Shown in pieces: positions 8,764 to 21,380 of a stretch of 64,000 nucleotides of DNA. A program made the position numbers and the translations under genes. This DNA is from Leptospira biflexa. GTDB taxonomy: Bacteria > Spirochaetota > DYNZ01. The stretch's first letter is position 1, and every line of letters starts with the position of its first letter. The notes under the pieces were generated by a model. That model saw nothing but the letters and a program-made list of their open reading frames with translations, did no database searches and had not been told where the DNA came from. Location of the stretch: the NCBI GenBank assembly GCA_020720805.1, contig DYNZ01000007.1, positions 2,568 to 66,567 on the forward strand, in the 5' to 3' direction.

Positions 8764-10308
8764 ATGAATCAACTGTCCAAATTCGCAAAAAAAATTGCAA
8801 TTGCTGTTCTGCTGGTTGCCTTAGGTAGCCAGGGAGCGGATATTTTTGCTGGTCCTACGATTATCAGGGATAACAGGGTGCAAGATACAGCTTTAACTCC
8901 AGTGCTGGGTCGCGGCTATTCGCTGTCGACGAACACATACCAATCCATCTGCATGAAAAATGTCAAATTGACGGAGCCTTCCTATGATATGGAGTATCAT
9001 TTTATCTCCAGTTCGGATTCTGGCAATAGAACTCGTAGTACGACCAATACAGCCAGTAGCGATGTAAAAAATACCAAGTCTGTGAATACGGATCGCTGGC
9101 GCAACAGCAGCAGGAGAGATTTCAGCTATGCGCGTAGCAGCAGTTCGACATCAACTGTGGTAAATGGAGTTACCTGGTACAACTACGATATGTATGTTGT
9201 TATCGATCTCTATTCCTATTATGCCTCCGTTGATGAAAGCGTATCCAGGTTGAGTGATTCTGCTCTTATCCTTCTGCAAAAGAATGACCTGCCAGGTTTT
9301 TTTAACGCGTGCGGTGTGTATTACATCCGTTCGATTGGACGCAAGGCTAAATTTGTCTCCAAATTTACCTACCGCAGCCAATCCAAAACCCGCGATGAGG
9401 CCTTTGAAACGCAGTTGCGCACGGCGATTTCCACCTTCTCCACAGAGAGCAAAAACAGTCGTTTTCTATTCTGGGGGAAGAAAGAGACAACAACCACCTC
9501 AACGACCTCTACTGCCGAGCAGGGTTTTGCTACAAAATTTCACGAGAATGCCGAAAAGAACAGCCTGACGATCGAAACCAATGTCTTTGGCCTTGGAAAA
9601 AACGAGAAAGCTTCCATTATCTCCTATGACATGGACAGCTTTAAGGCAGCGATCAAAGACGGCTTTATCGCTATGCAAAATCCAGCGACCGGAAAAGTCA
9701 GCCATATTGAGGCGGTTCCATGGGTTGAAAACACTGAGTTTCAGGCGAATGTACGTTTGGATGTGCTGCCCGATTCAAGTAAGGGGACATCTGAAGAGAA
9801 AAAAGATGAGACCACTACGACAACTACCACCTCCAGCACTCCTGGGGCTGAGATTCTCGATTATGAAAAAAAGCTAACTGTAAACGAAAACGCTGAATTT
9901 TTCATCGAGGTAATGCGTGTAAACCGCAATTTGTGGAATATGTACTACAAGGCGAACATCTGCCAGAAGGAGATCCTTACTAACTGGAAGAATGGCACAG
10001 AGTGGAAAGATAAAAATCTGGAAGCGGCTCTTTTGCTCAACAATAATGACAAGCAATCCACTCATAAACTGTCTGATCTTGATCAGCACCTGACAAAATC
10101 CATTCCTATGTTGTTCCAGAGCGCGCAGGATTTTATGGCGAAAGAGGCTTCTCCCTGCATAGATAAAATACTGAAAACAGGGATTCATAAAAAAATGCAC
10201 TTCTTTCATAATGAGTGTACAGCTTTGAAAAAAAATATGGTTGCGGTTCAAGATACATTGATCGAGCATTATTGTTTGCCCAATCTCTTCAGCGTTGGAG
10301 GCGAGTAA
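8764..10308 (+). CDS. Secreted MACPF-like protein, paralog 1
   Basis: Signal peptide, then GPTIIRDNR...PVLGRGYSLSTNTYQSIC; a Ser/Thr-rich segment; GFFNACGVYYIRSIGR (MACPF-signature-like); a second variable segment; NVFGLG; P.TGKV..IE.VPW; four C-terminal Cys. The ORF is certain, the fold is inferred. Confidence 0.6.
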   Translation: MNQLSKFAKKIAIAVLLVALGSQGADIFAGPTIIRDNRVQDTALTPVLGRGYSLSTNTYQSICMKNVKLTEPSYDMEYHFISSSDSGNRTRSTTNTASSDVKNTKSVNTDRWRNSSRRDFSYARSSSSTSTVVNGVTWYNYDMYVVIDLYSYYASVDESVSRLSDSALILLQKNDLPGFFNACGVYYIRSIGRKAKFVSKFTYRSQSKTRDEAFETQLRTAISTFSTESKNSRFLFWGKKETTTTSTTSTAEQGFATKFHENAEKNSLTIETNVFGLGKNEKASIISYDMDSFKAAIKDGFIAMQNPATGKVSHIEAVPWVENTEFQANVRLDVLPDSSKGTSEEKKDETTTTTTTSSTPGAEILDYEKKLTVNENAEFFIEVMRVNRNLWNMYYKANICQKEILTNWKNGTEWKDKNLEAALLLNNNDKQSTHKLSDLDQHLTKSIPMLFQSAQDFMAKEASPCIDKILKTGIHKKMHFFHNECTALKKNMVAVQDTLIEHYCLPNLFSVGGE

Positions 10309-10330
10309 GCTATCGAGAGTCGGGTTCAAG

Positions 10331-19324: not shown

Positions 19325-21380
19325 TAAAGTTATTGTTATATTTTATTTGCTGATTTTGTGGTTGGTCAGTTCGGGGTGCAGCGCAAAATATGTTTGGAAA
19401 CCTGTAAACCAGAAAAACTCTCATTTGCCGCTGATGCTAGATCATTCTGAAATTTTAGGCAGGGGCTTGCAATTAACGAGTGCAGGTTTTGTTCCAAAAT
19501 ATTGCATGAAATCGGCTCAGATTAAAGTACAGGGAGGCAACCTTGAAATTGAAATTATTCGTATTGATGATAAAATCGATCTTCGGTTTCTTTCCAACTC
19601 CATAAGAACTTTTACAGAAGAGAGCTGGCGTCAGGCTATTCTCTCTAATAAAGAAAGTAAAAAGATATTTAGCTTTCTACTGCGGATAAAATTAAAAAAT
19701 CGGACTGCATATTTGGATTATCTTGGATCCAAGTTGAGGGATGATATTCAAAAAATTCTTTCGAGCGGGCATGATCTCTTGTTTTATGATAATTGCGGAA
19801 CTCATTTTATTGACAGTGTGGTTTTTGACTCTTCGGTATCACTTTTTCTGGCTCTTTATTATGACTCCAAGGATCAAGGAATTTTAAATGAGATGTTGCA
19901 AAAGATAAAGGGGGAAAAGCCAGCGAATAGTTACCAGATTGAAATTCTTCATTCTTTGCCTAATTATTTAAATAGCTTTCTTTCAATGCGTATGCATTTA
20001 GCCGAACCATACCTGCCAAAGGACTTTTATTTTCCGGAAATAAAAGTATCTAATATAGATGTATTTTTGAAAAATATTATCCAAAATCTCTATAAGTCGG
20101 AGCATGGAGCTATTGTTTCTTTCGAAAAAAAATCTTGGTCAGAATTTAGTGGTATATCTTCGAAATTAAATAATAAAAAAACTCCTATGTTTCGGTGGCA
20201 TAGCGAAACGATTTTTAACGAAATTTATTTTTTGCGTGATGAAATTTTTCAACAGCATCTTAAGATGGCTGAAATTTTTTTATATCAAAAGAAAATAATA
20301 AAAAAGTTAAAAAAAAATCCAGAAATACAGCCAAGCTTTATCGGTTTTTTGATTCGATATAAGCCTGAAAAAACATGGAATCATTTTTACAAGTGTCGTG
20401 ATGCGCTATGGAGGCGGGGGGAAGCAGATATTCAATCGATATCGTATTGTAAAACATTGCTGTCACAATTGGAAAAAAATAAAATATGGATATCCGAATA
20501 TGGTCGTACGCAGCAGCCAAATATCTCGGCTACGTCACCAGGATATTTATCTTCGCAACAATTGTACCCGTTTTTATTGCAATTCTTACCGGAAGTAAAA
20601 AAAAATCCGAGAAGTAAATCGCTGGATTCACAAGATACACTGTTTCAAAATCAGATTCAATATAGACAAAATCCTCCATTAGGTATTGGTTTCGATATGC
20701 AAGGCAGGGTATATAAATCATTTTTCTTTAAGAAAGATGATGATGGCCAGCCAGAAACAGATCAGATTGTTCATGGAACTTCGTATCAAAAAAAGCCAAT
20801 GAATATGTGGTTCGACTATAATTTTCAAGAGGCAAAAAAATCCTCCTGGATCTATAAAATTTTCCTTTTCTGGAAGTCCTTTCCAGGTGAACACCATTAC
20901 CAGGGGGCTTGGAATCTTGAATATAGGACGGAGCAGTGGTTTCCTGAGCAAAAATTAAAATCTGAAGAAATTGCCATGATAAAAAAAAATCCAGTAAAAT
21001 TTTTTCAAAATTTTGGGACCCATTTCCTTCAGGAAAAAATGGGAAAGTCCGGTCTAATAATCCATTTTGCCAAACCGGCGATAGCCGCAAGCGCATTTTC
21101 GGAAAAAGAGCGTCGGAATAGATTAAAGCTTTTAAAATTTCAGCTATATGGCTTACCTTCCCATTTTCTAAAATCAATACATCAGCCGGATTCAGTTGAA
21201 GAGTTGTTGGATAACTTTGACCCTCGGTTTATTCAAAAAGCATTTGCAAATTCTTCGCCGGTGGCAACTAAATTAGCCTTAACACCATGGATACGTTATT
21301 TTCTTGCTTCAGGACAGTTTTCGGAGTCTGAGCTAGATCCATTCGTCTATTTTATGCATAGGTTTCATTTTGAAAAATAG
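19308..21380 (+). CDS. Putative lipoprotein with two MACPF-signature-like modules
   Basis: Lipobox VSSG-C. Module 1: ILGRGL...KYC...FYDNCGTHFIDSV. Module 2: LGIGFD...FFQNFGTHFLQEK. Overlaps the end of paralog 5. Confidence 0.5.
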   Translation: MKMVNSKVIVIFYLLILWLVSSGCSAKYVWKPVNQKNSHLPLMLDHSEILGRGLQLTSAGFVPKYCMKSAQIKVQGGNLEIEIIRIDDKIDLRFLSNSIRTFTEESWRQAILSNKESKKIFSFLLRIKLKNRTAYLDYLGSKLRDDIQKILSSGHDLLFYDNCGTHFIDSVVFDSSVSLFLALYYDSKDQGILNEMLQKIKGEKPANSYQIEILHSLPNYLNSFLSMRMHLAEPYLPKDFYFPEIKVSNIDVFLKNIIQNLYKSEHGAIVSFEKKSWSEFSGISSKLNNKKTPMFRWHSETIFNEIYFLRDEIFQQHLKMAEIFLYQKKIIKKLKKNPEIQPSFIGFLIRYKPEKTWNHFYKCRDALWRRGEADIQSISYCKTLLSQLEKNKIWISEYGRTQQPNISATSPGYLSSQQLYPFLLQFLPEVKKNPRSKSLDSQDTLFQNQIQYRQNPPLGIGFDMQGRVYKSFFFKKDDDGQPETDQIVHGTSYQKKPMNMWFDYNFQEAKKSSWIYKIFLFWKSFPGEHHYQGAWNLEYRTEQWFPEQKLKSEEIAMIKKNPVKFFQNFGTHFLQEKMGKSGLIIHFAKPAIAASAFSEKERRNRLKLLKFQLYGLPSHFLKSIHQPDSVEELLDNFDPRFIQKAFANSSPVATKLALTPWIRYFLASGQFSESELDPFVYFMHRFHFEK

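Follow-up and report, generated by a model that had tools for sequence, protein, structure and literature searches.

The gene cluster

The subject of this analysis is a cluster of genes for exported proteins in Leptospira biflexa (GTDB lineage Bacteria; Spirochaetota; DYNZ01), situated in contig DYNZ01000007.1 of the assembly GCA_020720805.1. The window, i.e. the whole stretch of DNA that was analysed, comprises 64,000 nucleotides (positions 2,568 to 66,567 of the forward strand of the contig), and coordinates given below are those of the window unless they are preceded by the identifier of another locus. Six genes, referred to as A to F, are regarded here as a candidate pore-forming system of the superfamily that unites MACPF (membrane attack complex/perforin) proteins and the cholesterol-dependent cytolysins (CDCs):

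Gene A, 8764-10308, + strand: secreted MACPF/CDC-like paralog of 514 amino acids (aa), assigned from its open reading frame (ORF), alignment, orthogroup and motif set.
Gene B, 10295-11773, + strand: secreted MACPF/CDC-like paralog, assigned from its ORF, alignment, orthogroup and motif set.
Gene C, 11815-13227, + strand: secreted MACPF/CDC-like paralog of 470 aa, the modelled representative.
Gene D, 16195-17733, + strand: secreted MACPF/CDC-like paralog of 512 aa, assigned from its ORF, alignment, orthogroup and motif set.
Gene E, 17783-19324, + strand: divergent paralog of 513 aa, assigned from its alignment, orthogroup, hairpin segments and motifs.
Gene F, 19308-21380, + strand: lipoprotein of 690 aa with two tandem MACPF-like cores, assigned from its AlphaFold2 (AF2) model, Foldseek matches and ortholog alignment.

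All six products bear Sec-type export signals, signal peptides in A-E and a lipobox in F. The genes are co-oriented on the plus strand, as stated in the original prediction of a six-gene cluster, but they are not contiguous: two blocks, A-B-C and D-E-F, are separated by two minus-strand ORFs (s1 and s2) and a gene for a collagen-like protein. The ORF of gene B opens at a TTG codon (10295), and the ATG at 10331 is the likelier start, giving a normal signal peptide. A missed paralog elsewhere in the window was considered and rejected, as a tblastn search of the remainder of the window found no further paralog outside the cluster. A scan for promoters and terminators gave a result no better than that for shuffled sequence.

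A family of paralogs with a probable CDC-type motif

The pairwise identity of A-D is 38-46%, that between A-D and E is 25-28%, and with tblastn E-values of 1e-37 to 1e-136 the paralogy of A-E is, at the level of sequence, far beyond chance; F is 18% identical to A-E in a MAFFT alignment. Each of the proteins A-E begins with a signal peptide followed by a conserved start (AGPTIIRDNR, DSVVIRDQR or APQIIRDNR), and all of them share the motifs LGRGY..TN..QS.C, FF..CG.YY[IV]RS.GR and P..G.V..[IM]E.VPW.EN as well as four invariant Cys residues near the C-terminus, while a GLGK motif present in A-D takes the form GLSK in E. Five paralogs with signal peptides and such a motif set had been described in the original prediction, and all the listed motifs are indeed present in A-E; among 83 family members, these residues vary little or not at all.

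The MACPF signature has the form Y/W-G-T/S-H-F/Y-x6-G-G. At the corresponding site A-E carry CG[STAPV]YY.RS[IL]GR, in which the Gly and the final aromatic residue are retained and the T/S-H and GG elements are not. A-E are closer to the key motif of CDCs and CDC-like proteins (CDCLs), which comprises F/Y-F/Y-Xn-YGR on strands 2 and 3 and a downstream Gly pair, and whose Arg and Gly residues are indispensable for the transition from prepore to pore (PMC7527733). The sequence Y136-Y137-X37-[IL]175-G176-R177, followed by G251-L-G253 (numbering of C), is invariant in groups A-D, in a seventh orthogroup termed X and in the group from Bdellovibrionota, and in the model of C the YY pair lies at the end of strand 2, GR at the start of strand 3 and G251/G253 just after strand 4. 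Judging from this order and from the predicted structure, the YY/GR/GLG set of A-D is regarded as a probable form of the CDC/CDCL key motif, in which Ile or Leu replaces Tyr and the Gly pair reads G-L-G, not GG; the larger spacing to the Gly residues in A-D is matched by a longer second hairpin segment. In the CDCs proper, domain 4 is a β-sandwich bearing the undecapeptide ECTGLAWEWWR and a Thr-Leu pair for the recognition of cholesterol; nothing resembling the undecapeptide was seen in the alignments of A-E, for whose C-terminal domain a helical structure with four Cys is predicted.

Position outside the existing sequence families

Searches of Pfam and NCBIfam with A-F returned nothing at E ≤ 1, PF01289 included, and among the 83 A-E family members none matched PF01823 (MACPF) or PF01289 (Thiol_cytolysin) at this threshold. 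Sequence searches of the PDB, run with C by itself and with the profiles of the A-E family and of F, yielded chance matches only, with no CDC or CDCL among them. For C, 298 homologs were found at E ≤ 1e-3 among the candidates scored, all of them unnamed or hypothetical and none with a recorded Pfam domain. Literature searches on the occurrence of this family in Spirochaetota, Myxococcota and Bdellovibrionota, and on the mining of bacterial MACPF proteins by structure, found no description of it.

Predicted structures of C and F

The AF2 model of C was built on an alignment of 83 sequences and reached a predicted local distance difference test (pLDDT) score of 79.8 and a predicted template modelling (pTM) score of 0.68. 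The signal peptide (residues 1-29) is followed by the core (30-320) and by a helical C-terminal domain with four Cys (321-470). Within the core the elements succeed one another as a strand (73-83), a poorly defined helical region (86-106), a long strand (120-140), a helix-turn-helix (149-167), another long strand (170-189), helices (196-240) and a further strand (244-250). In the model of F (pLDDT 79.6, pTM 0.81), one core spans about residues 50-290 and the other about 495-660, with a helical linker that contains Cys (299-419) between them. In the MACPF/CDC fold, two helical clusters (TMH1/CH1 and TMH2/CH2) are inserted after strands 1 and 3 of a central, bent and twisted antiparallel β-sheet. 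For C and for both cores of F a bent sheet flanked by two helical regions is predicted, i.e. the MACPF/CDC topology, and the order of the elements in these models fits the original proposal of a MACPF core with a variable segment at each position of the transmembrane hairpins (TMH1 and TMH2). The regions concerned are:

TMH1-equivalent of C, 12064-12171, + strand: residues 84-119.
TMH2-equivalent of C, 12382-12543, + strand: residues 190-243.
N-terminal core of F, 19455-20177, + strand: about residues 50-290, containing CGTHF.
C-terminal core of F, 20790-21287, + strand: about residues 495-660, containing FGTHF.

When the models were compared with the PDB by Foldseek, 50/50 of the top matches of C and likewise of F were MACPF/CDC proteins; an unrelated fold, which by the original prediction would have spoken against it, did not appear. 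C matched Bth-MACPF best (3kk7, E 4e-5), along with stonustoxin, pneumolysin, C8, perfringolysin, intermedilysin, the CDCLs 6xd4, 6nal and 8g33, pleurotolysin B (PlyB), Plu-MACPF, GNIP1Aa, Mpf2Ba1, TgPLP1, C6 and C9. The top 50 of F include C9, Plu-MACPF, pneumolysin, MPEG-1, EaCDCL-S, perforin and astrotactin-2, and 9ccq is found in the combined list for C and F. The Foldseek probabilities are mostly 0.9-1.0, with about 0.99 cited for C.

Profile comparisons provide a chain at the sequence level from A-E to Pfam MACPF that is independent of the structure models. The N-terminal 290 residues of F, comprising its first core, align with the A-E profile over 280 columns (hhalign 97.3%, E 1.7e-11), the C-terminal half of F aligns with its own N-terminal half (hhalign 93.9%, E 1.6e-7), and the C-terminal GTHY region of one F ortholog (L001:2948-5002) matches PF01823 with 24.0 bits against a gathering cut-off of 21.5 (E 5e-5); a second ortholog reaches E 0.13. 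A direct comparison with the PF01823 and CDC profiles, as suggested for a first check of the MACPF assignment, did not support it for A-F of the window themselves, and only the F ortholog from L001 passes PF01823. On the strength of the predicted folds, the family is a member of the MACPF/CDC superfamily at fold level and lies outside Pfam MACPF and CDC/CDCL as currently defined. At the least, some 300 'hypothetical proteins' can be given a MACPF/CDC-like annotation.

Hairpin segments and the divergent paralog E

From one orthogroup to another, the segments at the TMH positions differ in length (36-56 aa for TMH1 and 42-69 aa for TMH2), and it is in these segments and in the linkers that the paralogs differ most. 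In the segments of A, C and D, Ser, Thr, Gly and Ala are abundant, and gene A has a long Ser/Thr-rich TMH1 segment of 52 aa. In the model of C, the TMH2 segment forms helices (196-240) that lie between two long strands. The first TMH2 arm (FEFELELAIKGFG in C, FEADIETQINGFG in B and FEADMQVAVSGFG in D) has the top β-periodic hydrophobic moment of the whole protein in B and C and is among the top windows in D; in C, polar and hydrophobic residues alternate along KFEFELELAIKGFG. Such an amphipathic arm, as read from the sequence, is what a membrane-spanning hairpin requires.

E departs from this pattern in Spirochaetota and Myxococcota alike: throughout its orthogroup Arg177 of the trigger motif is replaced by Ser or Thr and Gly253 mostly by Ser, and its TMH segments are short and highly charged. 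E is proposed to be a non-inserting adaptor subunit.

Two peculiarities were noted elsewhere in the paralogs. Gene A has a low-complexity poly-Thr/Ser linker between the core and the C-terminal domain (9700-9790), and gene D a Pro-rich C-terminal tail, VPPPPKMPSPPQGANTPPPTNNATQPPRPR (17640-17733); both could be sites of glycosylation or tethering.

Distribution, gene order and the age of the paralogs

A scan of a genome collection found the family at 44 loci, hosted by Spirochaetota (many of them labelled Leptospirales), Myxococcota (Kofleriaceae, Myxococcaceae), Bdellovibrionota (Halobacteriovorax, Bacteriovoracaceae, Oligoflexia) and a few metagenome-assembled genomes (MAGs) with the label Delta- or Gammaproteobacteria. 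When 101 family members were placed in a neighbour-joining tree, the window's A, B, C, D and E came out in five separate clades, each of which has one gene per genome from at least 8 other Spirochaetota genomes. The usual order in related Spirochaetota, D-E-F-A-X-B-C, is kept across at least 7 genomes, so the comparison of synteny envisaged in the original prediction revealed a conserved arrangement of single-copy orthogroups. The window itself lacks X and has A-B-C upstream of the collagen-like gene and D-E-F, not downstream. The genome JAHJTV (L008/L015) has the collagen-like gene, D-E-F, a gene for a leucine-rich repeat (LRR) protein and A-X-B-C-X' in succession, with eight MACPF-fold genes in a row. 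Smaller sets occur outside the Spirochaetota, namely a triple consisting of a core gene, E and F in Myxococcota, and a core gene with an E-like gene, lacking F, in Bdellovibrionota. The pair of Halobacteriovorax sp. ZH2_bin.1 (L034:10001-12748) comprises a core protein with the full motif (464 aa) followed directly by an E-like partner (449 aa) devoid of the GR motif, and has no F-like lipoprotein.

Orthologs are 45-63% identical, compared with 38-46% for paralogs, which argues that the paralogs are old and have been individually maintained. This bears on one alternative, according to which the locus is an arsenal of independent homo-oligomeric toxins, each with its own target or receptor, and the clustering stems from tandem duplication only. 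Analogous arsenals are the BSAP MACPF toxins of Bacteroidales and the multiple CDCLs of Chitinophaga. Each of A-D has a complete motif set and amphipathic hairpin segments and could be pore-competent alone, the divergence between paralogs is concentrated in the TMH segments and linkers described above, and several unlinked CDCL genes per genome are known (PMC7527733). An arsenal would, however, be expected to show lineage-specific expansion and turnover instead of ancient, single-copy orthogroups in an order kept in at least 7 genomes; the C-terminal domain, usually the receptor-binding module, is conserved between the paralogs with its four invariant Cys and has not diversified; and the non-canonical E and F are always retained, even in the minimal triple of Myxococcota. 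As old, single-copy paralogs in a kept order favour non-redundant roles over a fast-evolving toxin arsenal, we judge this alternative rather unlikely.

The block from E to a 290-aa gene further downstream (17783-29273) differs in composition from its surroundings. The G+C content at third codon positions (GC3) is 0.30-0.38 in E, F, and the three genes that follow them (encoding a VWA-domain protein, a cyclase-AAA-TPR protein and the 290-aa protein), and 0.45-0.53 in A-D and the housekeeping genes; in three further genomes the G+C content of E and F agrees with that of their neighbours. E and F of the window are also unusually far from their orthologs, with 36-43% and 22-27% identity, respectively, versus 63% for C. 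The low-GC3 block may be the result of xenologous replacement.

The two-core lipoprotein F

The sixth gene had been predicted to encode a lipoprotein with GTHF motifs, which agrees with its lipobox Cys24, invariant in 11 orthologs, and with two GTHF motifs, at residues 164-167 (within CGTHF) and 570-573 (within FGTHF). The orthologs carry GTHY, and neither they nor F have the exact x6-GG of the MACPF signature. With orthologs only 22-27% identical to it, F proved difficult to trace: a word-indexed homolog search, with the single sequence and with the profile, returned only F itself, and the orthologs were gathered from the DNA of related loci and by an exhaustive search of representatives, which covered 1.84 billion proteins and gave 29 representative clusters. 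The public gene call of F begins at Met43 (648 aa) and loses the lipoprotein signal (19308-19434); the longer ORF is favoured because the N-terminus is conserved, with Cys24 and Trp30 invariant in the orthologs.

In the model, the TMH-equivalent regions of the second core comprise only about 16-17 residues, which is too short to span a membrane, and those of the N-terminal core 32-36 residues. The short regions, together with the lipid anchor, would suit a second alternative, in which the pore system is the same but F, alone or with E, would protect the producer: as an immunity factor and membrane-anchored MACPF decoy it would cap nascent oligomers on the producer's own envelope instead of serving as a platform. 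There is a precedent in a surface lipoprotein that neutralises a CDCL system of Bacteroides (PMC11169675), yet that lipoprotein is not described as a MACPF/CDC protein, the hairpin segments in the N-terminal core of F are still 32-36 residues long, and the loci of Bdellovibrionota lack F altogether, so F is not universally needed for self-protection. This alternative appears unlikely to us.

Orthologs in four genomes have an additional C-terminal region with MORN repeats (Pfam, E down to 1e-30; L003:4059-6638, L009:2771-5263, L011:2851-5313 and L013:3619-6063), which F of the window lacks. In the MAG VFJS01 (L005:4195-6725) the ortholog is divided into two ORFs of 436 and 407 aa, either by a frameshift (pseudogene) or by an assembly error.

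A candidate multi-component pore-forming system

Multi-component assembly of giant β-barrels was long thought to be special to vertebrate complement, and its extension to bacteria, by way of the two-component CDCLs of Bacteroidota, is recent. On balance we lean towards the view that the genes of this locus make up a multi-component pore-forming system within the MACPF/CDC superfamily, complement- or CDCL-like in its mode of action. In a scheme modelled on the membrane attack complex (MAC) of complement and on the CDCL-L/CDCL-S toxins of Bacteroidota, the lipoprotein F, perhaps together with E, would be a membrane-bound platform, regulator or gate by which assembly is nucleated or restrained. 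Onto it, A, B, C and D (and X in other genomes) would be added side by side, whereupon the two helical regions of each of them would refold into β-hairpins and form a large β-barrel pore in the target membrane. The helical C-terminal domain, presumably stabilised outside the cytoplasm by disulfides between its four Cys, could serve in targeting or in contacts between subunits. The target would most likely be another microbe, since the family is carried by Spirochaetota of biofilms and sediments and by lineages with predatory members (Myxococcota, Bdellovibrionota). More specifically, and only as a tentative proposal, five to eight anciently diverged MACPF/CDC paralogs might form an obligate hetero-oligomer nucleated or gated by the two-core, lipid-anchored subunit, with which environmental Spirochaetota kill other microbes and of which Myxococcota and Bdellovibrionota use reduced versions; in complexity it would match the MAC of complement.

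Several points weigh against a pore-forming system of this kind. The TM-scores of the Foldseek matches are low (about 0.15-0.25) and the E-values modest; low scores are expected for multi-domain, hinge-bent proteins, and the case for the fold consequently leans on the purity of the match lists, the probabilities and the predicted models, not on tight superposition. The equivalence of YY/GR/GLG to the CDC motif was derived from sequence order and predicted secondary structure, not from superposition, and confidence is low for the modelled TMH1 segment of C (residues 84-119), which is Ser/Thr/Gly/Ala-rich. For F, self-protection would be just as possible a role as that of a platform. Neither a secretion system nor an activating protease is encoded near the cluster in the window, and the sequence is present in DNA metagenome runs only, from a biofilm source, and in 0 RNA runs. 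Finally, some MACPF proteins are not lytic.

The last point leads to a third alternative, a structural, adhesive or signalling role in the envelope or biofilm matrix in which no pores are formed. Non-lytic MACPF proteins include the eukaryotic astrotactins and Torso-like, and astrotactin-2 is among the Foldseek matches; modules for adhesion or interaction are found in the products of neighbouring genes (collagen-like and VWA, and LRR in other genomes), and genes for secretion or activation were not found nearby. What is hard to explain by such a role is the conserved CDC-type trigger motif combined with amphipathic alternation at the hairpin positions of A-D, which would make little sense if no membrane insertion took place, and we regard this alternative as distinctly unlikely.

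If the proposed pore-forming system is real, it would offer a richer bacterial model for the division of labour between platform, adaptor and pore-former among paralogous MACPF/CDC subunits. As the family combines the CDC-type trigger motif (A-E) with the MACPF-type GTH[FY] (F), it links two branches of the superfamily at the sequence level. Its presence in Halobacteriovorax, of which isolates have been reported, and in Myxococcota suggests a role in predation or interbacterial killing, and the reduced versions with two and three genes are simpler forms to work with, the Halobacteriovorax pair being perhaps the most tractable.

Relationship to known pore-forming systems

The nearest described systems are CDCL-L/CDCL-S (Abrahamsen et al. 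2024, PMC11169675; Johnstone et al. 2025, PMC11952106; Evans et al. 2020, PMC7527733). These toxins of Bacteroidota have two or three components and a MAC-like mechanism, in which a subunit acting as the membrane platform brings in the pore-former and the producer is protected by a lipoprotein (PMC11169675, PMC11952106). The CDCLs were gathered by means of Pfam PF01289, at most 3 adjacent genes were reported, and those pairs and triplets that were studied closely had been chosen for lipoprotein signals (SpII; PMC11169675). The locus described here resembles them in its adjacent paralogous MACPF/CDC genes in a Gram-negative bacterium, in the probable key motif of two aromatic residues followed by xGR and a downstream Gly pair, in a C-terminal domain unrelated to CDC domain 4, in the involvement of a lipoprotein, and in the presence of the CDCL structures 6xd4, 8g33, 6nal and 9ccq among the Foldseek matches. 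It differs from them in that 0/83 family members match PF01289 or PF01823, in the number of MACPF-fold genes (6 here and 7-8 or more in related genomes, as opposed to 2-3 adjacent genes), in the type I signal peptides of A-E as opposed to SpII signals of the CDCL pairs, in the tandem-core lipoprotein, in the helical four-Cys C-terminal domain, in the Ile/Leu at the position of the Tyr of the CDCL motif, and in its hosts, which are Spirochaetota, Myxococcota and Bdellovibrionota instead of Bacteroidota. The original prediction knew of no described bacterial locus of this size; described CDCL systems have at most 3 adjacent genes, and the two- and three-component CDCLs are a precedent.

With the complement MAC (C6, C7, C8alpha, C8beta and C9) the locus shares at least five anciently diverged MACPF paralogs kept as distinct orthologs, hairpins that are full-length in some paralogs and atypical in others, and structural matches to C8, C9 and C6. 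In contrast to the MAC, it shows no detectable sequence similarity to these proteins, has no TSP, LDLRA or EGF domains and no C5b-like initiator, and its genes are clustered in a bacterial locus; its sequential assembly is only a proposal.

The single-chain bacterial MACPF proteins (Plu-MACPF 2qp2, Bth-MACPF 3kk7, BSAPs, Mpf2Ba1 and GNIP1Aa) have the same predicted core fold, and F approaches them in its GTH[FY] motif and in the one ortholog that passes PF01823. They are encoded by single genes, are detectable with Pfam and possess a β-rich C-terminal targeting domain, whereas A-E lack T/S-H, have the helical four-Cys domain and form a conserved set of multiple paralogs. Stonustoxin α/β (4wvm), the third-ranked Foldseek match of C, brings two cores side by side in a pre-pore arrangement, and the tandem cores of F could template assembly likewise; this toxin differs from F in being a eukaryotic venom composed of two separate chains with PRYSPRY domains.

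Neighbouring genes and genomic setting

The following genes lie between the two blocks of the cluster or directly downstream of F:

s1, 13240-13617, - strand: small predicted lipoprotein of 125 aa with an LFTGC lipobox, convergent with gene C.
s2, 13624-14094, - strand: small exported protein, convergent with gene C.
Collagen-like exported protein, 14214-16067, + strand: 617 aa, Pfam Collagen (E 6e-32).
VWA-domain membrane protein, 21629-23683, + strand: directly 3' of F.
Cyclase-AAA-TPR protein, 23683-28404: translationally coupled to the VWA gene.

The collagen-like protein contains five GXY tracts, each after a module of about 30 aa (xHxWxGTxLRFxxPDGSWGxxVDLxG), followed by a coiled coil and a C-terminal domain; matches to Scl/Lcl-like models of NCBIfam are below their cut-offs. 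In two other genomes (L015:8402-9820 and L019:8233-9714), the gene directly upstream of the D-group gene encodes a homolog of it. The possibility that s1 and s2 are paralogs or conserved immunity genes was rejected, as the two show no relationship to one another and none of the related loci has a homolog of s1; judging by this distribution, the membership of s1 in the system is doubtful. Six other Spirochaetota genomes have a homolog of s2 at a distance of a few kb or less from the C-group gene, and s2 is a possible accessory protein of the system. Besides s2 homologs, genes recurring near the cluster elsewhere encode a small sCache_2 protein, an LRR protein between F and A, a pentapeptide-repeat protein, a cNMP-binding protein and a DsbA-like thioredoxin.

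Downstream of F, three genes with overlapping stop and start codons (21629-29273) encode the VWA protein, which has a signal peptide and one transmembrane helix, the cyclase-AAA-TPR protein (1573 aa, with two cyclase domains, AAA_16 and TPR regions) and the 290-aa protein, for which there is no Pfam match. This trio looks like a signalling module. It was rejected as a conserved part of the system, being absent beside the cluster in all other loci, and the membership of the VWA gene is doubtful.

Upstream of the cluster there are a CsgG/LpoB-like lipoprotein fused to a domain resembling the β-barrel of outer-membrane proteins (3764-4948) and, on the minus strand, an exported WD40 β-propeller protein of 864 aa (5726-8320). 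A location of the locus in a mobile element was considered and rejected, because the remaining window consists of chromosomal housekeeping genes: the region 31663-59753 encodes a Crp-like regulator, the nitrite reductase nrfH/nrfA, ResB/CcsA of cytochrome c biogenesis, CorA, CapB/CapC-like poly-γ-glutamate genes, carB, queF, a gene of the menaquinone (futalosine) pathway and glgC.

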